A DNA stretch of 64,000 nt from a virus (taxonomy: Duplodnaviria; Caudoviricetes), in the IMG/VR virus record IMGVR_UViG_3300035686_000003, positions 83,707 to 147,706 of that record, one strand, 5' to 3'. Position 1 is the stretch's first letter. The number at the start of each line of letters is the position of its first letter. A program made the translations under genes and the position numbers. A model generated the notes under the pieces. That model saw nothing but the letters and a program-made list of their open reading frames with translations. It ran no database searches and was not told where the DNA came from. Below are positions 6,105 to 34,479 of the stretch, piece after piece.

Positions 6105-7940
6105 TCACGAGATGAGTTTGAATTTTTTCATCAAATCATTGCGTTGAGTCTTGATTAGAAGGCTTAATATTTGTGCCTTTACTTCAGCTACTCTTCTAGT
6201 TTCCCCTAGTTCTTGCTCAATGAAATCATCAAGATCGATGTGGGAGGTCGTGTTTAGCTTACCAAGAACGATGTCGCTTTGTGACTTGACAGTTGCCACA
6301 GCAAGGTTCAACCCCTGACGTTCAGTGGGCGTTAGAGCGTCTTTAGCTGCTATTGCAGTTCTAGTTTTACTTTGGTCTTGCGGAAGTTCAACACTGTCAA
6401 GTGTAAACTGAGTTTTCGGATGCCACTTCCCATTAAATTCAACAATTCTGTCAGAAAGATCTCGTTTTGCGTTGCGAGGTGGTTCGTTATTTTTCAGTTC
6501 GCCCCAGTTACGTGCAGTCGCATCGAAGAGGTTTACGTTCCAAGTAACAGAACTGCCTGTAATGGTTGGAATTTCAACTCCAGGAGCGATCGCCGCAAAG
6601 CAAACCCTGAGTTTAGTTAGGTTACTCATCAAAGCAAGCTTGTTGATGTTTCCTTGAGGAGAACCAAACCAAACATACTTTCCACGCTTGTCTCCACCAG
6701 AAACCAATGAAGCACAAAGGTTCATCAATAGTTCCATTAGCTCTTTAGCAGCAGAAGCCAGATCCTCGCTTTCTTTTTTCTTTACGTCTCTCTCTAGTGA
6801 CTGAGCCAAGAAATAAAACTCGTCAACAATCAAGAGACAAGGGTTGTCGTCTCTGGCATTCTTGAGGTAGTCCCTGATAACCACAATAAAAGATTCGTAG
6901 GCATCAGTCTTATCAACGACATCTCCCAGATCAAAGAATTGCGTTTTAGTGCAATGTGCCCAATACTCAGGATCTTCGCCCTGTTTGGCTAGTGAGCTAA
7001 TCGAATAAACTTTGTTGAATCTCCCCCTTTGCAATCCAATTTTGCTGGAGATTGCCATGAGCAATGATTTGCCGCATCTTTGTCCACCAATAAAGACAAT
7101 TGAGTCAACGCACTCCAAGATGAAATCTACGATGTCTTTAGTTTTTTCGGATCGTTTAGCCATTTCGATTACACTTGGTTGTGAGATTTGTTCCTGCAAA
7201 CGGGTGAAGGGTTCTTGAAGCTGAGTCGGGATAGACTCTACATCTGTTTCAACGAATACGGGAGCAGGCTTTGGAATAACAGTTTGCTTTGGTAGTTGAG
7301 GACGCTTTGAACTAGGAAGGGCAATGCTAGCCGTATATTCGTTTGCAAGATCTTCGCAAGCATCAAGAACTTCCTCATATCTCCAGCCTTTGCAACGAGC
7401 TACGTGGTCAATCGCTTTGGTTAAGGGGTTGTCGCCTTTGTAACTAATCTCTCCATCGACAACTGTTACATCAACTGCCTCCTCAACAGCTTCCAAGAAC
7501 AAGTCCGTGCCTGCAATTTTCCAAAGGCTAGCCCAATAGACTGTTGGTGACGAAGAAATAGCTAACCTCACTTGCTCAGAGGTTTTCTCTAGCTTCATTA
7601 TTTTTGCCTGTTGAGTTCCCGCTGACCCAAGAAGCCCTATCATTCCGGCTCCAGCAAGCACAGGTATAACAGCTGCTCCAATAACACCTAATGTGGCACA
7701 AGAGCTAATTGCAAGTCCTCCAAGTAGCATTCCGCTTAAGCTCAAGGTAGCATTGGTTCTTTCAACGGCATGGCACTCTTTTTCAAGCTTTTTTAGTCCA
7801 TTCAGCAATCTACCCAGAACATCAATGCGGTCTGCAACCGGGGTATCAGGAGTTACATTTGCAACTTGGATTAAGTCGTCAAATGGAGAGTTGACTAAGC
7901 TTCGAGTTAATGCCAGTTCACCTTTGGATAATCTGTTCAT
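6105..7940 (-). CDS. Membrane-anchored FtsK/HerA-type P-loop ATPase (TraB-like architecture)
   Basis: Two N-terminal hydrophobic segments, Pro-rich linker, Walker A GGQRCGKS, Walker B LLIVDEF, GGDKRGKYVWFGSPQ. Confidence 0.7.
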   Translation of the reverse strand: MNRLSKGELALTRSLVNSPFDDLIQVANVTPDTPVADRIDVLGRLLNGLKKLEKECHAVERTNATLSLSGMLLGGLAISSCATLGVIGAAVIPVLAGAGMIGLLGSAGTQQAKIMKLEKTSEQVRLAISSSPTVYWASLWKIAGTDLFLEAVEEAVDVTVVDGEISYKGDNPLTKAIDHVARCKGWRYEEVLDACEDLANEYTASIALPSSKRPQLPKQTVIPKPAPVFVETDVESIPTQLQEPFTRLQEQISQPSVIEMAKRSEKTKDIVDFILECVDSIVFIGGQRCGKSLLMAISSKIGLQRGRFNKVYSISSLAKQGEDPEYWAHCTKTQFFDLGDVVDKTDAYESFIVVIRDYLKNARDDNPCLLIVDEFYFLAQSLERDVKKKESEDLASAAKELMELLMNLCASLVSGGDKRGKYVWFGSPQGNINKLALMSNLTKLRVCFAAIAPGVEIPTITGSSVTWNVNLFDATARNWGELKNNEPPRNAKRDLSDRIVEFNGKWHPKTQFTLDSVELPQDQSKTRTAIAAKDALTPTERQGLNLAVATVKSQSDIVLGKLNTTSHIDLDDFIEQELGETRRVAEVKAQILSLLIKTQRNDLMKKFKLIS

Positions 7941-7975
7941 GATCTTAAGCGGAACGCCTCGTGTAGATTCATTGA

Positions 7976-8734
7976 TTACATTTTGCGAGCAGAGATATCG
8001 ACCGTTGGTGCTTCACGTCTTGGTTCGCCACCACCTCTCGAAGATTGTCCTCCCTTGGCTTGCTGGTGCCCCTCATGGATAGCTTCTGCAATATCGCAAG
8101 CAGCACTGAGCAAAGAGATCGTAACTTCGGGTAACACTAGTGTCACAATGAGCATCAGCATTCCTTGAAAGCTGAGAGACAGAACAGTTGCCCAAAACAC
8201 TAGCTGAATAGCAGTCTCAACCAGGTAGGAAAGATACCTGCCTCTCTCTAACGTTCGATGAGAGAAAGTATGCCAGTTCATCAGACGCTCTGAGACTCCT
8301 TCTGGCAAATCTTTAGCTTTGGGGTCAATGTTTTTGTTAACGTAAGCTTTGGCAATTTTCTTTTTTACTCTCCAAAGACTAGGGAATAATTGATACACGT
8401 TGAAACCAATGCCAGCTAATATTCCTAGTGTTCCAGCACCAATCCCAACAAGGACACCCCCAAGACCCAGAGCTTTTGCAGCCCAAACTCCAATCGCACT
8501 CCACTGGTAACCAGCAGCAATCATCACTCCCGCAAAAATAGCAGCTGCAACAAACACAACAGCATCAGCAGTTGCAAGTACCTCAAGTAAAGTCTTAATT
8601 GCAAAAGTTGTCAGATTAAAGGTGTTATGGATGAACTCGCTAATCAGGTGGACTATCGATTTGCCAAAACTGAAGATCTTCTGCATGATTGCAGTAATTT
8701 TTTCATTCAGAGACTTGTCGTTTCCTTTGGACAT
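7976..8734 (-). CDS. Multi-pass membrane protein
   Basis: About four hydrophobic segments; same operon as the ATPase. Confidence 0.8.
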   Translation of the reverse strand: MSKGNDKSLNEKITAIMQKIFSFGKSIVHLISEFIHNTFNLTTFAIKTLLEVLATADAVVFVAAAIFAGVMIAAGYQWSAIGVWAAKALGLGGVLVGIGAGTLGILAGIGFNVYQLFPSLWRVKKKIAKAYVNKNIDPKAKDLPEGVSERLMNWHTFSHRTLERGRYLSYLVETAIQLVFWATVLSLSFQGMLMLIVTLVLPEVTISLLSAACDIAEAIHEGHQQAKGGQSSRGGGEPRREAPTVDISARKM

Positions 8735-8738
8735 GGCT

Positions 8739-9107
8739 TTACTTTCCTGCTTTGATTAAAGAGATTTGAGCATCAAGTTCTTTTTGGGTAAAAAGGTGTT
8801 GCACTTGTAACTGACTGTTATGATATGCAGCGTGACCAATTTTCCCGCTGGGATCTTTGAAACAAGAAGTTGGACTTCTGCCATCAGCGTGCAGTTGTAT
8901 AACGTCACCAATTAACATCGGTCTAACAACTTTTTGACAGTTATTGACGAGCGAATGTCTAGCCACAGTATCTAAAGCTTTACTTCTGGAAACTTGCGCT
9001 CTACTAGATGTAAGGTTTTGTGCGAGCTGTGCCGACATTGATAGAACAGCACAGCCTGCGAGAATGGCAAAACTAATATGTTTGGCGTACAGAGGAGCAA
9101 TCTTCAT
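8739..9107 (-). CDS. Secreted or membrane-anchored protein
   Basis: N-terminal hydrophobic segment ISFAILAGCAVLSMSA; TGATG coupling with the upstream gene. Confidence 0.7.
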   Translation of the reverse strand: MKIAPLYAKHISFAILAGCAVLSMSAQLAQNLTSSRAQVSRSKALDTVARHSLVNNCQKVVRPMLIGDVIQLHADGRSPTSCFKDPSGKIGHAAYHNSQLQVQHLFTQKELDAQISLIKAGK

Positions 9108-9805
9108 CAGCCCCACACCTCGTCTAAAAAAGAGTCAGTATCAAACTCAACCTTTGAATCCACCGAAGCCTGTCGCTCAACAGTTACTTGCTGTCTTCTT
9201 GTAGTCCGTTGATTCTCCCGTTCCTTCATCTCCTCAAGGAACTCGTCAACATTGACCTCTTCAACCTTGGTCACCTTCTTGTCAACGATCTTCTGGATAT
9301 TAGTCGATGACAGTAAGTTGTCCAACACTTCTTCTTGCTCAGCCATTGCGTCAAGGATTCTGTTTGAGTAATCCTTTTGCCGCTGTTGCCAAGCAGCAAC
9401 GAAAGTTTTCTCTTGTACTTCCGCTAGCAAATTTGCCCGTTGTTGTTCCCGGTTTGCAATGCTTGTTGCGATCGCGAATAACACTCTGTCAGAGAATCCA
9501 ATGTTCTGAGCGGTCAACACCGACTTGGCACTTTTTACTAGCTCAGTTGTGTCTTGCAAGACTAATGCTTCCGTTTGTTCACTACAGTCGCTAGGGGTCT
9601 GTGTTGGTGTAACTGGTGCGGTGCCAGCAAGTTCCTTAGTTTGCTTGACTGCGAATCCCAATGCTTCAAGGGATTCAAATGCTGAAACAACGTCTTCTTC
9701 AGATATGTTATCGCTGTTTTCTGTGTACCCCATAGCTTTTAGAGCAGCTGTCGCATTTTCTTGGGGGTAGCAATCTAAATCTTTTAATGCTTCTGTAAAG
9801 TTCAT
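9107..9805 (-). CDS. Acidic helical / coiled-coil hypothetical protein
   Basis: 232 aa ORF coupled to 8739..9107. Confidence 0.75.
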   Translation of the reverse strand: MNFTEALKDLDCYPQENATAALKAMGYTENSDNISEEDVVSAFESLEALGFAVKQTKELAGTAPVTPTQTPSDCSEQTEALVLQDTTELVKSAKSVLTAQNIGFSDRVLFAIATSIANREQQRANLLAEVQEKTFVAAWQQRQKDYSNRILDAMAEQEEVLDNLLSSTNIQKIVDKKVTKVEEVNVDEFLEEMKERENQRTTRRQQVTVERQASVDSKVEFDTDSFLDEVWG

Positions 9806-9976
9806 GGTCTTCGTTACTTGCGCTTAGTTTTCTGTGTCTTACAACACTATAACACGACGATTAGCAATTGTCGGCTTTTCGACAACAAATATTCATTACT
9901 ATTGCGCTATGAAACGAAGAATATGGATTAGAAATTTTGATGGTAGAAAATACTTAGAGCCAGAGCTACTCCAAGC

Positions 9977-10360
9977 CTATGAGAATAGCCATGACTCTAC
10001 TACTTCTCTTTTCAATGCGAGAATCTTCTTTTTCCCTGACTCATCGGTTCCTCCAATCCAATCGCGAATATCTGCGTACTCACAAATGCTATGTACTTCT
10101 TGGCACCAGGCAATCATCATAAGGAAAAATTTCTGGTAGAAGTCCAGCTTCTTCCGATTCTTCCTGTTTCCCCAATAAAGGATACGCACCAAAGAAATCG
10201 AACTATCAACAATCTCTCGTTCCCAGTTGTAGATCGTCCGTTCGGTGACGGACAGAACTTTAGCCCATTCTTCACGAGAGGAAAGGGTTTTTAGATCGTC
10301 CTTGCTTGCCCCAAACATATTCAGCAAGGTACTTAGGTAATATGCCTCTTGAGTCTCCAT
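9977..10360 (-). CDS. HTH DNA-binding protein
   Basis: SREEWAKVLSVTERTIYNWE; start reassigned to METQEA. Confidence 0.7.
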   Translation of the reverse strand: METQEAYYLSTLLNMFGASKDDLKTLSSREEWAKVLSVTERTIYNWEREIVDSSISLVRILYWGNRKNRKKLDFYQKFFLMMIAWCQEVHSICEYADIRDWIGGTDESGKKKILALKREVVESWLFS

Positions 10361-10453
10361 GTTTTCTACTAATATTAATTCCTTGTAAAGTTTAACACTA
10401 ATTTGTATTTTCAGCCAATTGTTATCACAAAGGTTTGTAGATTTGTTTGTCCG

Positions 10454-10755
10454 AATCCGGAAACGACCCAGAAACGAGTCAGAACCCACCCAGAAAGGAC
10501 TCGGAAAGTGCCTAATGATAGTGGTTCGCAATAGTGGACTAAAATTTTGCGAATGAAACTATAGAAAACGAGTGATTTACTTGAGCTGCATCTGTGAAAC
10601 CCTTATGGCAGTAAGGTGTTTTATTTGAGGGGTATGTGAATCCCAGATTCTTTGTCGCAATAGTAAATCCAGAAAGGACTCGGAAAATCGGTCTTATATT
10701 GACGTATTGTGGGTCAGAAATCGGAACTTCCGGATTTGCTCACACCGTTTCCGGA
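10454..10755. repeat. 11-bp-phased octamer array and TCCGGA cluster in a divergent intergenic region
   Basis: AATCCGGA, GACCCAGA, GAGTCAGA, CACCCAGA, GACTCGGA at 10454/10465/10476/10487/10498; AATCCAGA and GACTCGGA at 10666/10677; TCCGGA at 10456, 10729, 10750. Confidence 0.7.
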
Positions 10756-10930
10756 TTTTGCTGGTAGTATTTATTCCTATGAGTTTGAAAGTTGGAAGCA
10801 GTTCCTTACTTCTTCATTGTTCTTGACTCTGTTATCACAGAAGATGTTCCCGACAATGAGGTAAGCTCGACAACTTGACAACTCGACCGTCCATCTACTA
10901 AGCTGGTGAAATAAACCGTTTCTGGACAAA

Positions 10931-11101
10931 ATGAACACTAAAAGACCGAAATTGACTTGCTTCACAACCCATGAACTTAGAACGTGCCTGAAGAAACACG
11001 TTATAGATGAAGGAACAACCTTGGACAAATTCATCCACGGTTTATTGGAGAATTACTTAAAGGAAAGAGGTCTACTTACAGAGAAAGAGGAGGCAGCTTA
11101 A
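10931..11101 (+). CDS. Small RHH-like protein, 56 aa (not in ORF track)
   Basis: MNTKRPKLTCFTTHELRTCLKKHVIDEGTTLDKFIHGLLENYLKERG; abuts the next ORF. Confidence 0.65.
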   Translation: MNTKRPKLTCFTTHELRTCLKKHVIDEGTTLDKFIHGLLENYLKERGLLTEKEEAA

Positions 11102-11102
11102 T

Positions 11103-11312
11103 ATGTTCTGGAATCCCAACGGATGCAACAATCGCACATCACATAACAATGGTGAGCCAGTGTGGAACGAACCGACACTACGAAGATTTTGGCGATACTG
11201 CGAGATTAAAGGCTTAGACTCAAAGGATGCTAGGTCGGTACAGAAGTTTGTTGAAGAAGAACTGTATCCTCCTATAGGCACGATTAACTCTCAGGGGGTG
11301 CCAAACTTCTGA
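11103..11312 (+). CDS. Hypothetical protein
   Basis: GAGGAGG RBS; coupled to neighbours. Confidence 0.65.
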   Translation: MFWNPNGCNNRTSHNNGEPVWNEPTLRRFWRYCEIKGLDSKDARSVQKFVEEELYPPIGTINSQGVPNF

Positions 11313-11584
11313 TGGCTACAGAAGAATTAACCATTGAACACGTAAGGCGATTTGCGCCATACCAATTGTTCCAGTGTGTATCTCCCGATGGGAGTGAGTA
11401 TCTGTTGGAGTTGCAGGAGATGGACGTTGATGCTGCCATTGAAGCAGATGTGTTTCATATCAAAAACCTTAACAGCTCTGATCCTGTTGCAGTAATGGAC
11501 TTTGCTAACCTAAAGCTGACATTGCAGACCATCAAAACTTATGTACCCTGTTGGACAAACACCTGGGATAGATTAGTGCATTAA
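11312..11584 (+). CDS. Hypothetical protein
   Basis: TGATG overlap with the upstream ORF. Confidence 0.65.
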   Translation: MATEELTIEHVRRFAPYQLFQCVSPDGSEYLLELQEMDVDAAIEADVFHIKNLNSSDPVAVMDFANLKLTLQTIKTYVPCWTNTWDRLVH

Positions 11585-11592
11585 AGGAAACC

Positions 11593-11739
11593 ATGAAGAT
11601 AATCACTGCTGGGCTTTTCATCGTTACGATTCTTGCTACAGCTCAGTTGCTCACTGACTTCACGCCTATTTATGCAGACGCCCAACCGGAACCCACAGAA
11701 TCTTCGCCCCCACGAGGAGGTGGACGAAGAGATATTTAA
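11593..11739 (+). CDS. Secreted PatX-like peptide, 48 aa (not in ORF track)
   Basis: AAAGGA RBS; MKIITAGLFIVTILATAQLLTDFTPIYADAQPEPTESSPPRGGGRRDI: signal peptide, Pro-rich stretch, RGxGRR; terminator follows. Confidence 0.62.
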   Translation: MKIITAGLFIVTILATAQLLTDFTPIYADAQPEPTESSPPRGGGRRDI

Positions 11740-11765
11740 CTTCAAAGGTTAGCGAACCTACCTTC

Positions 11766-11793
11766 AGCCCTGTGGGAAACTACGGGGCTTTTT
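11766..11793 (+). terminator. Intrinsic terminator
   Basis: AGCCCTGTGG-GAAA-CTACGGGGCT followed by TTTT. Confidence 0.75.
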
Positions 11794-11844
11794 GCTGTGT
11801 AAACGCCCACAATAGTAGCAGTAGATACAGAGGAGATTACTGTT

Positions 11845-12777
11845 GTGGCTTTTGGGAAACAAGAGTTTGAGCTAAAAGATTTTGTACAAGAGCAAACTCA
11901 GCGGCTAGCAGAAGAGACACCCAATGAAGAGAGTTGTGGATTTATTCTTCGGGATGACAATGTTATTCGGTGCAAGAATGTATTCTACAATCCAATGCTC
12001 GATGATAAGGACGAGCAGGCACTTGCCGAACTCATGGATGAGTTAATTATTCGTGACGTGTCGCTCGAACAACCTTTGGACAAGGTTCGTGAGGCAATCT
12101 CGGTTAGGACAGGTATCGCAATATCAGCTCGCGATCGCTTAGCAGCAGATAGCAAAGGTATTGCTGCTGTGTGGCATTCCCACTGTCTCGATTCCTCACC
12201 AGGGATGCTGACCTACGAGGATAATCCAGCGCTAGGGATTCATTCGGACATCACACAATCGAAGCTGCAACGGTTACCTTATGTGATGTACCATACCCGT
12301 TTCAAAGAGTGGGATATGTATGACCCCTACAATCTCAGTCCATATCCACTGAAGAAGCAAATCGCCCACCCGGAAAATCCTGATGATTACGCTAACCTTC
12401 CTTACTGTTGGAACCGTGCCGATTGCCTAGAAATTCCCAGATCAGCACTATGGGGAATGTTTGGTATTGACTTAGGTATTCATTTGCGATCTCACCCTTC
12501 CGAGTACATGACTGAAGGATGGCAACGGTATGTCGATGACTTGCCAAAGCTAGGCTTTGAGGAAGTACCGATGTTTGACGCTATGAAGTTCAAAGCTGGC
12601 GATTGTCTGCTAGCGCAACTTCCGCGACACAAGACGCTACATCACTTATTCTTGCTTGTGGATGAGCCGAAGCAACTGGTGCTACACGTCATGGATGGCG
12701 GCTTGAGTGTTATCGAACCTGTAGCGAAGTGGCGACGATTTGTGAGGGTGTTATTCCGTCACCAAAAATTTATCTAG
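11845..12777 (+). CDS. Tail-tip assembly protein K-like (JAB/MPN plus NlpC/P60)
   Basis: EESCG...WHSH...D; ADCL...HH catalytic pattern. Confidence 0.8.
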   Translation: MAFGKQEFELKDFVQEQTQRLAEETPNEESCGFILRDDNVIRCKNVFYNPMLDDKDEQALAELMDELIIRDVSLEQPLDKVREAISVRTGIAISARDRLAADSKGIAAVWHSHCLDSSPGMLTYEDNPALGIHSDITQSKLQRLPYVMYHTRFKEWDMYDPYNLSPYPLKKQIAHPENPDDYANLPYCWNRADCLEIPRSALWGMFGIDLGIHLRSHPSEYMTEGWQRYVDDLPKLGFEEVPMFDAMKFKAGDCLLAQLPRHKTLHHLFLLVDEPKQLVLHVMDGGLSVIEPVAKWRRFVRVLFRHQKFI

Positions 12778-13133: not shown

Positions 13134-13430
13134 ATGAATGATATAAAAGTTGCAATTAAGCCAGGTGGCATTGGTACAGAAATATTTTTAAATGGGAAAA
13201 AGATCGATGCTGCAACTAGAAAAATTATTGTCGAGATCAATCCTTCTTCAGCTTCTATGACTGTGGAAGGACTGCTTATAGGAGAGGATGGACTACCATT
13301 AATTGCTGGCGAAGAACTTCAGACTTACTCCTGTAATGCGTCAATAGAAGAACCCGGAGAGATAAACTTATCGTCACCCATGCTCGCACGTTTGTTGCAG
13401 TCGATTGACAGGAGTGCCGATGCTAACTAA
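13134..13430 (+). CDS. Hypothetical protein
   Basis: ATG ORF overlapping the gpI-like start. Confidence 0.55.
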   Translation: MNDIKVAIKPGGIGTEIFLNGKKIDAATRKIIVEINPSSASMTVEGLLIGEDGLPLIAGEELQTYSCNASIEEPGEINLSSPMLARLLQSIDRSADAN

Positions 13431-13983
13431 AGTCCGGCTACTCGGGGTCTTGGGAGAGGAGTTTATCCCTGAGATTAACCTAGATATTAATTCTGTGCAA
13501 GAGGCTTCATGGGCACTCCAAAATATCTTTCCCCGCTTCAAGTCTTGGGTATTGGAGCAGGCGCAACATGGGCTAGCTTATGAAGTTTTCGTGGGCGATT
13601 GGCAAATTGGAGAACAGCATTTGCTGGCGGCTACTGGAGGGCAGGAGATATCAATTATTCCTTTAATAGGCGGAAGTGGTCGAGGCATTATTTCCATCAT
13701 TGGAGGTCTTGCCCTGATCGGACTCGGATTAGCCACAGGAGGTGCGGGTTTCTTGGGATTTTCCTCTACCAGCTTATTATTGGCAGGCGGGGCGCTTTTA
13801 CTCCAGGGCATCATTGGCTCAAAAAGTCCCAAAGCAGAAGAGAATGGACAAAAAAATAGTTTGATCTTTTCCGGTCAGCCCAATGTTACTGCTGTGGGAG
13901 CAGCTAAGCCGTTATGTTTCGGAGTCTTCCTAGTATCTGGCACCGTAGTGAGCGCCAGAATACGTACATTTGAATTATCGTGA
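13420..13983 (+). CDS. Tail assembly protein I-like
   Basis: VRLLGVLGEEF ubiquitin-like N-terminus, IIPLIGGSG, Gly-rich hydrophobic segment, FSGQPNVT..G...PLCFG. Confidence 0.85.
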   Translation: MLTKVRLLGVLGEEFIPEINLDINSVQEASWALQNIFPRFKSWVLEQAQHGLAYEVFVGDWQIGEQHLLAATGGQEISIIPLIGGSGRGIISIIGGLALIGLGLATGGAGFLGFSSTSLLLAGGALLLQGIIGSKSPKAEENGQKNSLIFSGQPNVTAVGAAKPLCFGVFLVSGTVVSARIRTFELS

Positions 13984-31189: not shown

Positions 31190-34100
31190 ATGTTTGACAA
31201 ACAAGGAAAATCATTGTTCGATGAATTAATCGAAATGACGGCTGCTGGGTTAGATAGTGAAAGTGACAATAACAAGATAAGAGACAAGTACATTGAAGAA
31301 GTTTTTGAATTTGGCGGAAAGAAATTCGTTGAACGAGTTAACAAGTATGGGTATACCGAAAAAGGCGACAAAGTAGTTCTAGATGACTGGTTTAAAGAAT
31401 ATCTGGAACTGATCGGTGATTATCGAATTCCTCATACCCTTACTACTGGTGCAGCTCAGTGTGGAAAAGCGCAACCTGTTTACTCCAAAGTTCTTACTCC
31501 TTCAGGTTGGACAACAATAGGTGAGCTAAGACCAGGCGATGATGTTATGTCAGCAGCTGGCACTCCTTGCAAGGTCATTAATATTTATCCACAGGGAATA
31601 AAAAAGGTTTTTTCAATTAAGTTTGATGATGGCACATCGACAGAATGCTGTGAAGAACACCTGTGGCTTACCCAGAACCAAAAAGAAAGGAGACGATATC
31701 GAGAGCAGTCTTTTAGACTACAAGAAAAGCCTTTCTGCTCTGTAAAGACGCTTGCTGAAATCAAACAAACATTAAAATTTAAAAATCCCGAAAAAAAGAC
31801 AGGGCAAACTCATGCAAACAATCATTGTATCCCATTGACAAAAGAAATACAGTTTGATTGTCAAGCTATACCTTTAGATCCGTATTTGTTGGGTGCAATG
31901 CTAGGAGATGGCAGCATGGCTCATCCTCAAAGAATTAGTTTCACGAATATGGACTTAGAAATAATTGACTTGGTAAGGCAAAAACTTCCAGCGGGGTGCA
32001 TTCTCAAAAAGCAAGTCAATGGTGAATTCAGACGTGATGGGAAAAGAGCTGTAGAATATCGTATCAATCAAAGCAAAACTCTTGTTCATGCTTTTGAAAG
32101 TCTAAATTTACTAGGCACTCGAAGCAAAACAAAGTTCATTCCTGACTGCTACAAATACAATTTGCCAGAAATCAGACTAGAAGTTTTACGTGGGCTAATG
32201 GATACAGATGGTAGCATTTGCAACGTGAACAATATGCCAACTATTAGCACTACCTCTAGGCAAATGGCTGACGACATAAGAGAAATAGCTTTGTCATTAG
32301 GGGGATTAGCAATTGTCCATACCATGACTGCTCCTAGTCGGCAAAACGAAAACTGGAACACTGCTTATTCCGTTCGACTAACATTGCCTAACGGAATAAA
32401 CCCATTCCGTTTAACCAGAAAAGCAGAAAGAGTTAAAGAGAGGAACTACTGGCGATTCAAAAGATTTGTGGTAGGTATAGAAGAAGCTGGCGAGCAAGAG
32501 TGTGCCTGTATTTTAATAGATCACCCAAGCCACCTCTATGTTACGAACGATTACATTGTAACTCACAATACATTGGGTCACAATCTTTTGCTAGCAGATA
32601 CCATTATCAATGGCAAACTTAATTGTGGATATTTTTTCTCCTCTAGAGATTCTAGGGAGGTCAATACGCCAGAGCAACAACGCCCAACAATAGAAAGGTT
32701 TGCCGAAGAATACGAAAAAATAAACGGAGTCAAGATCAGGCAACGGTCTGATAGAAAGCTGTCTTCAAGATATCAGATTGATGGTGTGACAGCAATCTTT
32801 TCGTATCTTTCAACTTCAAAGGCAAGCGATAGCAAGAGTTCGTTGGCAGCAGCTGGCGGAAGCGCTGTTTCTTTTACGGCACACGTTATGTTTGTAGAAG
32901 AAGCTGGACAGTCACCACCAGAGTCAACAGAAGTTGTTATGCCTCGCTTATCTGCCTCTAAGATACCGACTAAGCCTAGACGTGATCTAGGGACGCCGGG
33001 AGGAGGAGGTGCTTCCATTGAAGTTTTGTTGCAAGATGTTCACAGAAATTTTTATCCTCATGCACAATGCAAACATTGTCGAAAAATATTTCCACTTCAT
33101 CCATTAGGTTGTTTGCTGAAACCAATCAAACGAAAAAACGACCTAGGGAAGGAAGTGACTAGTTATTTTTTGAGCAGTGGACGCCCTGCACTATGGTTCT
33201 CCCATGATGCAGAACGACCAGTGGAAACAGCCTATATCGGTTGTCCTCATTGTGAAAAACCTATCGACAATGAAACAAGATATGCAGCTCGCTATAGGTG
33301 TACGAAAACAGGGGTTTGGTTAAGAGATTTTCTTGATAGTTTGCCTGTAAATGATCCGGTAGCTTGTGCCGATCTGAACACTAGAGTTGGTATCCACATC
33401 TCTCCCCTAGTTCGCAAGACCAAGCAGAACCTTGCCGCCGATCTCATAGACAAAGGTTTAAGAGCATCTAGAACCGCAGACTATCACCAGCAACAATTAG
33501 GAATTGCAAGTTCCACACAGATAGTTGGCATCTCCCTCGAAATGCTCCGGAAAGCACTTGCAGCACCTAAGCCTGATGGTTCGCCCCTGTTCACTCTAGC
33601 TGGCTTAGACATGGGCAGGAGTCGCGACTTCCTCACGATCGCCCAAATCTATCTCCCTGAGAATTACCGCTTCCTAGATCAACAGGAAATCTCGAAGCAA
33701 TCCATCAGGCGCATTGTCTTCAGCTCAGATGTTGAGCGATCGCAAATACCAGAGCTGCTAAAGCGGCATAAGGTCAACTATGGTATCTGTGATAACGAAC
33801 CTAGTAGGGACTCTTCAATGGAGTTGTGCAATGAAACGAAAGTGTTGCAGATGGCAGACCAGAAGGATACCTTGAAGGATGCTGTGAAGCTTGACAAGGT
33901 TAAGGATGGTGGTGCGGAATATCCTTGCTGGTTTATCCGTAACAAGAAGTTCCAAGACTTAATCCTGGAGACATTTCTTGAAGTTGCTGAAGACGGCTAT
34001 CCGCTTTATCGACTTCCCGAAGCGTGGAACAAGCATCTCAGTTCAAAGTCCGACTTGTCGCCATTCAAGCATCTCACTAGTCCCACTCGTGACCCTGAGA

Positions 34101-34228
34101 CTGAGAAGTGGAAGCGAGCTGCCGATGGGAACGACGACTTGTTCTATTCATTCCTTTTCCTCGAAGCTGCATTTTACATCAAGTGCCTTGAGTTAGGCAA
34201 GTATCCAGAGTGGATTGGTAAGGTTTAG
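31190..34228 (+). CDS. terL: Terminase large subunit, intein-containing
   Basis: Split Walker A AAQCGK|T, VMFVEE, GTP, CxxC pairs, AGLDMG nuclease motif, DDLFYS. Confidence 0.8.
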   Translation: MFDKQGKSLFDELIEMTAAGLDSESDNNKIRDKYIEEVFEFGGKKFVERVNKYGYTEKGDKVVLDDWFKEYLELIGDYRIPHTLTTGAAQCGKAQPVYSKVLTPSGWTTIGELRPGDDVMSAAGTPCKVINIYPQGIKKVFSIKFDDGTSTECCEEHLWLTQNQKERRRYREQSFRLQEKPFCSVKTLAEIKQTLKFKNPEKKTGQTHANNHCIPLTKEIQFDCQAIPLDPYLLGAMLGDGSMAHPQRISFTNMDLEIIDLVRQKLPAGCILKKQVNGEFRRDGKRAVEYRINQSKTLVHAFESLNLLGTRSKTKFIPDCYKYNLPEIRLEVLRGLMDTDGSICNVNNMPTISTTSRQMADDIREIALSLGGLAIVHTMTAPSRQNENWNTAYSVRLTLPNGINPFRLTRKAERVKERNYWRFKRFVVGIEEAGEQECACILIDHPSHLYVTNDYIVTHNTLGHNLLLADTIINGKLNCGYFFSSRDSREVNTPEQQRPTIERFAEEYEKINGVKIRQRSDRKLSSRYQIDGVTAIFSYLSTSKASDSKSSLAAAGGSAVSFTAHVMFVEEAGQSPPESTEVVMPRLSASKIPTKPRRDLGTPGGGGASIEVLLQDVHRNFYPHAQCKHCRKIFPLHPLGCLLKPIKRKNDLGKEVTSYFLSSGRPALWFSHDAERPVETAYIGCPHCEKPIDNETRYAARYRCTKTGVWLRDFLDSLPVNDPVACADLNTRVGIHISPLVRKTKQNLAADLIDKGLRASRTADYHQQQLGIASSTQIVGISLEMLRKALAAPKPDGSPLFTLAGLDMGRSRDFLTIAQIYLPENYRFLDQQEISKQSIRRIVFSSDVERSQIPELLKRHKVNYGICDNEPSRDSSMELCNETKVLQMADQKDTLKDAVKLDKVKDGGAEYPCWFIRNKKFQDLILETFLEVAEDGYPLYRLPEAWNKHLSSKSDLSPFKHLTSPTRDPETEKWKRAADGNDDLFYSFLFLEAAFYIKCLELGKYPEWIGKV
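31469..32569 (+). mobile_element. Class-3 intein (367 aa) with LAGLIDADG homing endonuclease
   Basis: Starts AQP, block B EEHLW, block F ECACI, ends VTHN before Thr+1; LLGAMLGDG and LRGLMDTDG. Confidence 0.9.
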
Positions 34229-34269: not shown

Positions 34270-34479
34270 ATGACTCACATCAATGCTCCGAAACGAGGTA
34301 GCGGCAGAAGGACTTGGAAACTCCCTGGTGAGAGAATATCGGAATACCCTCGCATCACTTGTAGGGTTGACCCTGAGACAGAAAAGTTCTTGGAGGAGCA
34401 GAGGAGTATAGGTGAAACAGATCAGTCGTTAATGACACGATTGATCAAAAATTTACAGGGATATCTGCTGGGAAGTTAA
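34270..34479 (+). CDS. Small RHH-like protein containing RGSGRR
   Basis: PRITCRVDPETEKFLEE...SLMTRLI; AGAGG RBS. Confidence 0.6.
   Translation: MTHINAPKRGSGRRTWKLPGERISEYPRITCRVDPETEKFLEEQRSIGETDQSLMTRLIKNLQGYLLGS

Follow-up and report, generated by a model that had tools for sequence, protein, structure and literature searches.

A putative membrane-motor cassette of cyanophages shares its bidirectional control region with the head of a tail operon

Do two gene sets that diverge from a single control region of a cyanophage genome work together to colonize cyanobacterial filaments, or do they simply share a control element? The question is raised by positions 6105-11793 of a 64,000-nucleotide stretch of virus record IMGVR_UViG_3300035686_000003 (record bases 83707-147706), and that whole stretch is hereafter called the window. 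The leftward arm of this locus contains a membrane-anchored ATPase (ATPase611), and the rightward arm contains a 48-residue peptide (pep48) with an Arg-Gly-x-Gly-Arg motif near its C-terminus. An original prediction treated the arms as one unit, in which a TraB/Spd-like operon would spread phage DNA along the trichome without lysis while a PatX-like peptide acting on HetR kept neighboring cells undifferentiated. All nine of the open reading frames (ORFs) on which it was built are present, with the order and strands that it gave. However, the analysis led us to favor, tentatively and with a probability of about 0.45, a different reading: two unrelated gene sets would share one bidirectional control cassette, with a membrane DNA motor as the core of the leftward set and the head of a tail operon as the rightward one.

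The leftward arm consists of five genes, all on the minus strand:

6105-7940, minus strand: ATPase611, 611 aa, with Walker A FIGGQRCGKS and Walker B LLIVDEF
7976-8734, minus strand: TM252, a polytopic membrane protein with hydrophobic blocks at residues 44-113 and 171-216
8739-9116, minus strand: sec125, a bitopic or secreted protein with one N-terminal hydrophobic segment (residues 9-32), a domain of ~95 residues, and two Cys
9107-9805, minus strand: cc232, a soluble protein without a hydrophobic segment, its C-terminal half charged and helical
9977-10360, minus strand: HTH127, the first gene of the leftward operon, with the classical helix-turn-helix (HTH) word EEWAKVLSVTERTIYNWERE; a predicted repeat-binding regulator

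This arm is real and conserved, an uncharacterized membrane-motor cassette of cyanophages. The order of HTH protein, charged protein, bitopic protein, polytopic protein, and ATPase was found again at three related loci (L002, L005, and L006) and in a looser form at six more (the P0010 contig, L007, L008, L011, L012, and L016). The contigs bearing the cassette are all phage-like and enriched in the HIP1 word GCGATCGC. TM252 is the best-conserved partner of the ATPase, with 69% identity in L002 and 28-35% in L006, L007, and L012, while sec125 is kept in L002, L005, L006, L007, and L012, and cc232 is recognizable at 25-32% identity in L002, L005, and L006. The nearest Atlas clusters to cc232 were cyanobacterial hypothetical proteins at 0.85-0.88, which we take as a lead only, and an Atlas look-up with TM252 returned only chance-level matches.

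The three core genes also occur outside phages. Plasmid5 of Fischerella sp. NIES-4106 (AP018303) carries them in the same order as NIES4106_61350-61370, all annotated as hypothetical. Its bitopic protein is 40% identical to sec125 (E 1e-17), the polytopic protein directly upstream of its ATPase is 35% identical to TM252 (E 1e-34), and the ATPase itself matches ATPase611 with an hhalign probability of 98.6%. These are true homologs of the core genes, although the replicon is a plasmid rather than a phage, and tblastn detected no counterpart of HTH127 or cc232 on it (L018). The plasmid measures 24.5 kb, is typed as non-mobilizable, lacks a relaxase, and encodes a ParA-like protein and an integrase. 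The grouping of the ATPase with small membrane proteins, as originally proposed, is borne out: sec125 and TM252 lie close to ATPase611, and the core order persists on plasmid5.

When the Fischerella ATPase was used as a bridge query in a tblastn survey of plasmids, 30 plasmids with distant ATPase relatives were recovered as transitive matches. They come from Nostoc (13), Tolypothrix (7), Aulosira, Microchaete, and Trichormus (2 each), and Fischerella, Calothrix, Scytonema, and Leptolyngbya (1 each), and all 30 belong to filamentous cyanobacteria. PLSDB also includes many plasmids of unicellular cyanobacteria. Restriction to filamentous hosts was a check suggested along with the original prediction, and every named replicon with a relative does belong to a filamentous cyanobacterium. 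The ATPase of pCC7120alpha from Nostoc PCC 7120 is a distant cousin (core hhalign probability 88%, E 3e-6), and the membrane genes upstream of it have no detectable relation to those of the window.

ATPase611 is divided into an N-terminal helical region, a Pro/Gln-rich linker (~207-267), a P-loop motor (~265-520), and a C-terminal helical domain (~535-606). A hydropathy profile places a 40-residue, Gly/Ala-rich hydrophobic hairpin at residues 66-109, N-terminal to the motor. A word-indexed search of 5.8 billion proteins recovered six relatives, and a full profile search, run against 1.84 billion cluster representatives, recovered 247, 183 of them below 1e-10. Walker A (GGQRCGKS) and Walker B (LLIVDEF) are invariant across relatives. 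Some relatives retain the N-terminal region but have a motor too divergent for the profile to detect. No relative came out of pattern scans for the family across 185,579 species genomes. Of two scans of viral contigs, the first gave none and a wider one gave three loci. Among 50,697 isolate phage records, blastn and tblastn with the locus, ATPase611, and TM252 gave no match.

Sequence families did not recognize this protein. The FtsK_SpoIIIE, DUF87/HerA, and AAA_10 models of Pfam all failed to match it; a weak AAA match (E 0.01) was the only one obtained for any of the nine proteins in scans against Pfam, PHROG, and PADLOC. DUF87, AAA_10, or ATPase_2 match only a handful of the distant relatives, in the region of Walker A. 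A sequence profile search of the PDB with ATPase611 yielded nothing below E 0.38.

Structure was more informative for the motor than for the whole protein. The full-length model was poor (pLDDT 59.6), and all of its Foldseek matches were weaker than E 0.001. The motor domain was refolded separately with a deeper alignment of 118 relatives, which gave a model with pLDDT 93.6 and pTM 0.90. Foldseek matched this model to B204 (1.7e-6) and TcpA (8e-6). Exhaustive structural alignment (VIA) returned Z scores of 14.6 for VirB4, 14.3 for TcpA, 13.6 for HerA, 12.9 for STIV2 B204, 12.7 and 12.3 for EccC, 12.1 for DndH-C, and 11.6 for FtsK. The best twelve rows all belonged to the FtsK/HerA superfamily (Z 11.8-14.6), and Rho, F1, RecA, and AAA+ structures scored no higher than 11.8, with generic RecA, F1, and AAA+ folds at ~10-11. 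By these structural matches, and with no sequence family to place it in, ATPase611 represents a new branch of the FtsK/HerA superfamily, one that is an orphan in sequence. Membrane-anchored DNA motors have the same layout of membrane hairpin, linker, motor, and small helical tail. The proposal of a membrane-anchored ATPase is upheld by the hairpin, by the motor fold, and by a domain order like that of TraB, TcpA, and FtsK.

The C-terminal segment (535-606) is helical in the full model (pLDDT ~80), and a structure search with it found no match. As a separate observation, the C-terminal helical domain (ATPase611 534-609; P0020 583-680) also matches regions of hypothetical proteins elsewhere, on plasmids of Nostoc and Tolypothrix and in phages of Cylindrospermopsis, Nostoc, Anabaena, and Leptolyngbya.

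How closely does this resemble known machines? In Streptomyces, TraB acts with Spd proteins in conjugative transfer of double-stranded DNA and in its intramycelial spread, and TraB itself has a membrane region, a hexameric-type DNA motor, and a small C-terminal helical domain. This domain is a winged helix that binds the 8-bp repeats of the clt locus. The domain layout of ATPase611, the small membrane proteins beside it, the short DNA repeats nearby, and the multicellular hosts are all reminiscent of this system. However, no sequence homology was found, the repeats track a separate protein (HTH127) rather than the ATPase, and the repeat cassette has a second copy, as a predicted promoter element. 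The description of the leftward arm as a TraB/Spd-like operon holds for the succession of a membrane region and an FtsK-like motor fold and fails for homology to TraB or FtsK, given that FtsK_SpoIIIE is not matched. TcpA of the Clostridium perfringens plasmid pCW3 (PDB 6o1w-6o1z) is likewise a membrane-anchored, single-domain motor of FtsK/HerA type, and its VIA alignment with the ATPase611 motor extends over 212 residues, with a Foldseek TM score of 0.51 and an identity of ~10-13%. The window cassette differs in being phage-borne, in having no FtsK_SpoIIIE match, and in showing neither Tcp-type partners nor a relaxase. The Planktothrix phage PaV-LD (HQ683709), a cyanophage of a filamentous host, also has an FtsK-type ATPase among small membrane proteins, the "FtsK/SpoIIIE protein" ORF127, in a cassette that, unlike that of the window, includes an M23 peptidase. 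A relationship between ORF127 and ATPase611 was rejected because profile comparison showed only Walker A to be shared (hhalign probability 1.5%).

The rightward arm tells a different story. Its features, followed by the first tail genes, are:

10931-11101, plus strand: RHH56, a small lineage-specific protein with a ribbon-helix-helix (RHH)-like pattern
11103-11312, plus strand: u69, a small lineage-specific protein packed tightly behind RHH56
11312-11584, plus strand: u90, the sole small gene of the right arm retained in relatives
11593-11739, plus strand: pep48, 48 residues, with AGGA 8 nt upstream and the C-terminus PPRGGGRRDI
11766-11789, plus strand: an intrinsic terminator after pep48, made of a 10-bp-stem hairpin plus a T-run
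11845-12777, plus strand: a gpK-like minor tail protein (phrog_30 at 3e-15)
13405-13983: a gpI-like tail assembly protein (phrog_32 at 2e-35)

This arm heads a tail-gene operon composed of u90, the gpK-like and gpI-like genes, and a lysozyme. In L002, L004, and L005, a u90 homolog comes immediately after the intergenic region and overlaps the gpK-like gene, with the gpI-like gene next. The u90 identity is 40-44% in L002 to L005, and RHH56, u69, and pep48 are not present in L002, L004, or L005. L012 keeps the whole left arm, lacks RHH56 and u69, and has a 42-codon ORF in the peptide slot. The two arms are therefore not co-conserved as the original prediction supposed, an outcome that it had itself named as refuting it: L002, L005, and L012 are complete on the left without RHH56 and u69, and L002 and L005 lack a peptide gene as well. 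The rightward arm does not belong to the membrane-motor cassette, and pep48 probably does not work together with it.

The peptide itself has a layout reminiscent of PatX, with an export-type hydrophobic segment at residues 1-26, then IYA|DA, a Pro-rich linker, and the Arg-Gly-x-Gly-Arg motif near the C-terminus. However, this motif reads RGGGR and not the RG(S/T)GR that defines the HetR inhibitors PatX, PatS, and HetN, from which pep48 also differs in that no homology was found, in the lack of motif conservation, and in being a phage gene placed before tail genes. No relative of pep48 was found among the 5.8 billion proteins. The 42-codon ORF of L012 lies in the same slot before the tail gene, has a hydrophobic start followed by a Pro-rich stretch, and ends in PRSDDRRD where pep48 has PRGGGRRD (pairwise E 0.002); the terminator and a shared GCCCACAATAG word before the tail gene are conserved there too. 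Neither glycine of RGxGR is therefore conserved. In the structure of HetR with PatS6, most contacts come from the two arginines and the main chain, the PatS serine hydrogen-bonds Glu253, and the free C-terminal carboxylate faces Arg223 (PMC4649674). In pep48, where RDI comes after RGGGR, the serine contact would be lost and trimming would be required. PatX undergoes export and maturation to HRGTGR (PMC12756182). A search for HetR_C gave no match in the phage genome and none in the control genomes either. The PatX-like reading of pep48 fails on the motif and on its conservation, and it is weakly supported.

RGSGR words do occur elsewhere in the genome. Six-frame translation contains three, where a third-order Markov model expects 0.25, and two of the three are followed directly by a stop, where 0.02 are expected; neither count was reached in 150 simulations. 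The DNA polymerase gene (genome 72239-76651) contains both RGSGR-stop words, at 75695-75736 on the minus strand and at ~74825-74872 on the plus strand (L019). Of the two, one runs antisense and lacks a start codon, and one is a 13-codon ORF, MYRDPDDNRGSGR-stop, which uses a different frame of the coding strand within an acidic linker and has AGAGGAG 9 nt ahead of its ATG. Purine-rich acidic linkers read out of frame yield Arg-Gly words. Because the Markov model misses this effect, it underestimates the chance of RGSGR, and the true chance is higher than the model gives. Neither RGSGR-stop word was found in ~250 kb of related loci, which include a related polymerase. The third word (KRGSGRR) belongs to the basic N-terminal tail of a 69-aa RHH-like ORF at window positions 34270-34479 on the plus strand, just after a 1012-aa gene.

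What the two arms do share is their control region, for which the following features were recorded:

10416-10780, unstranded: the bidirectional control cassette, with a second, inverted copy at genome 2512-2888
10456-10511, plus strand: array 1, five YCRGAAA direct repeats, ~100 bp upstream of the HTH127 start codon
10669-10760, unstranded: arrays 2 and 3, with direct copies at 10669 and 10680, one more at 10714, and an inverted pair TTCCGGATTT at 10728 and 10749

The divergent control region with phased repeats was correctly described: it spans 570 bp, and the array has 11-bp phasing. The five copies of array 1 start at 10457, 10468, 10479, 10490, and 10501, an exact 11-bp spacing, and beyond the direct copies of the other arrays there are inverted ones at 10728-10760 and 10919. 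The density reaches 8 exact matches per 300 bp, and only one other site in the genome exceeds 2. The second copy of the cassette (L010) lies ~2.5 kb past the window end on the circular map, ~56 kb rightward. The two copies are 81% identical by blastn over 385 columns, with near-identical repeat-bearing ends and a diverged center, and in the second copy array 1 points toward a 633-aa gene that has a glycosyltransferase behind it. Since the bidirectional cassette is duplicated before unrelated operons, a promoter and operator is a better fit than an origin, centromere, or transfer site. We best read the control cassette as a predicted operator and promoter element. An origin-of-replication reading of the repeats was ranked low on account of the same duplication before unrelated genes.

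Related phages have the same three-cluster array architecture built from other words: CCGGACAGT in L002, TTGGACAGT in L005, and CGGAAAGT in L006. The HTH word is conserved in six phages, and the recognition helix falls into two groups, RTI-NW in the window and L006 vs. T(I/L)-RYE in L002 and L005. These NW and RY groups match the two groups of repeat words, and this co-variation suggests HTH127 as a putative repeat binder. Neither HTH127 nor RHH56 matched Pfam at E<0.1, and both labels describe a sequence pattern only. RHH56 was ruled out as a general repeat binder, given that relatives with arrays are without it. L002 also has a second small cluster of its own word at positions 700-820 (three CCGGACA-type copies in ~110 bp), at a distance of ~6 kb from the main one, so secondary operator sites may be a trait common to the window phage and L002. 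A sigma-70 consensus scan of the control region returned 0 sites, and Rfam gave no match at 9800-12000. The promoters of patS and patX are described as DIF1-type (TCCGGA) in PMC7377430. A DIF1 promoter was rejected here, as the conserved part of the repeats is GGACAGT or CGGAAAG and the genome shows no enrichment of TCCGGA (20 observed vs. 36 expected).

From these results, we propose that the leftward operon opens the DNA-metabolism transcription unit of the phage. HTH127 would bind the 11-bp phased repeats and control its own operon along with the second cassette copy elsewhere in the genome. The conserved core of bitopic protein, polytopic protein, and FtsK/HerA-type ATPase would assemble in the cytoplasmic membrane as a motor complex acting on the double-stranded DNA of the element, most likely by pumping it along or through the membrane in the manner of TraB, TcpA, and FtsK. 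The complex, its DNA substrate, the direction of transport, and its purpose are what we infer, and TraB/TcpA-like DNA handling at the membrane is our best guess for the role of the cassette. The rightward arm heads a tail-tip and lysis operon, into which RHH56, u69, and pep48 would have been inserted in this lineage, with pep48 as a putative small exported or membrane peptide whose RGGGR is not a conserved motif.

Several points weigh against this proposal. The structural margin over generic additional-strand catalytic-glutamate (ASCE) ATPases is modest, at only ~2-4 Z units, and none of the five leftward proteins is recognized by a sequence family, whether in Pfam, PHROG, PADLOC, or NCBI-type names. 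The co-variation of repeat and HTH reflects a single phylogenetic split and is thus weak evidence. Behind the apparent limitation to filamentous hosts stand one direct match and a set of transitive matches in a plasmid database rich in Nostocales, and the host of the phage is narrowed only to a cyanobacterium from a biocrust metagenome. Moreover, FtsK/HerA motors such as EccC and VirB4 also move proteins, so the fold does not fix DNA as the substrate. The motor could then energize secretion of phage proteins across the cytoplasmic membrane, and indeed EccC, EssC, and VirB4 are among the top structural matches (Z 11.4-14.6) and the partners are membrane proteins. However, Pfam shows no WXG-like substrate and no component of a type IV or type VII secretion system, and ATPase611 has a single ATPase domain compared to three in EccC, which together make export of proteins very unlikely. 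An exclusion or defense module, in which the motor and its partners block or expel the DNA of competing phages and plasmids to the benefit of the carrier phage and plasmid, strikes us as unlikely but not far-fetched. HerA-type ATPases belong to several defense systems, HerA-DUF, Sir2-HerA, DndH, and TdpAB are among the structural matches, and the cassette is carried by phages and a plasmid in an early operon under its own regulator. Yet PADLOC matches none of the proteins, no nuclease or effector domain was detected in the core, and the cassette has a fixed place heading replication genes in distant phages instead of sitting in a variable island.

A further reading is a replication or segregation tether, with iteron- or centromere-like repeats and a membrane ATPase that anchors or partitions replicating genomes. 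Direct repeats with 11-bp phasing upstream of an NTPase operon do resemble plasmid partition and iteron loci, such as parC of plasmid R1 and iteron origins; the operon continues into an exonuclease and a UvrD-type helicase, and the cassette is also found on a plasmid. Still, ATPase611 is not of ParA or ParM type, HTH127 and cc232 were not found on plasmid5, and duplication of the repeat cassette before an unrelated virion and glycosyltransferase gene set fits a promoter/operator better, and we consider a tether distinctly unlikely. Non-lytic spread of phage DNA along the trichome coupled to a HetR-directed RGGGR peptide, as originally predicted, draws on the TraB/TcpA-like architecture and fold, on a cassette carried by a relaxase-less plasmid of a filamentous cyanobacterium, on named hosts that are all filamentous, on the over-represented RGSGR words, and on the PatX-type layout of pep48, given the export and maturation of PatX (PMC12756182). 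Its difficulties are greater: the arms are not co-conserved, homology to TraB was not found, and pep48 has no relatives and a positional counterpart that reads RSDDR. In addition, the central Gly of pep48 replaces the Ser/Thr of PatS and PatX whose hydroxyl hydrogen-bonds HetR Glu253, and the three residues after the motif would have to be trimmed to free the carboxylate facing Arg223 (PMC4649674). We consider this model highly improbable. The most improbable of the readings is the broader speculation that the phage manipulates host multicellularity, with RGSGR-type HetR-directed peptides (trimmed pep48 and the 13-codon MYRDPDDNRGSGR-stop ORF) alongside a cassette that passes DNA between trichome cells.

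If the cassette of our preferred reading, a membrane DNA motor beside an unrelated tail operon, does move DNA, it would be a relaxase-independent, FtsK-type system of DNA transfer or handling in cyanobacteria, common to phages and plasmids of multicellular hosts, and would give a second multicellular phylum its equivalent of Streptomyces TraB. It is open to direct testing through the three-gene homolog on the small Fischerella plasmid and the distant ATPase cousin that Nostoc PCC 7120, a genetic model, carries on pCC7120alpha. The control cassette, with its phage-specific repeat words, matching HTH regulator, and second copy, may offer a compact case in which a regulator and its operator sites have shifted specificity in step. 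A PatX-like role for pep48 would be remarkable if true, weakly supported as it is.

The source of the locus can be narrowed in part. The record is 147,706 bp long and complete according to CheckV, and the genes near the locus encode a UvrD-type helicase, a phage lysozyme, an N4 gp49-type protein, the gpK-like minor tail protein, an exonuclease, and the gpI-like tail assembly protein; the virus is therefore a tailed cyanophage. The only public sequencing run containing the locus is one DNA run of a biocrust metagenome, perhaps the sample of origin, and the same sequencing-run search listed no RNA run with it. The HIP1 word occurs 65 times in the genome against 2.3 expected (~29-fold enrichment), while GGCC is absent (~577 expected) and CCGG is depleted five-fold. 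Together these counts suggest that the host is a cyanobacterium whose restriction system is specific for GGCC. Avoidance of GGCC is common to the relatives L002, L014, and L016 and is not seen in L012 or L015.

A few further features of the genome were recorded along the way. Positions 1-120 and 147580-147706 contain the same 22-bp tandem repeat (CAATAGGCGGCAACTCATTTC, 4-5 copies) with the same flanking bases at both ends, and because of this shared end repeat, the record looks circular or terminally redundant even though it is classed as linear. The 1012-aa gene mentioned above (window 31190-34228, plus strand) has a LAGLIDADG_3 domain (E 8e-9) that is probably an intein. The UvrD-type helicase contains an intein in L002 and L003 (Intein_splicing, 1056 aa), whereas the helicase of the window (595 aa) is without one.

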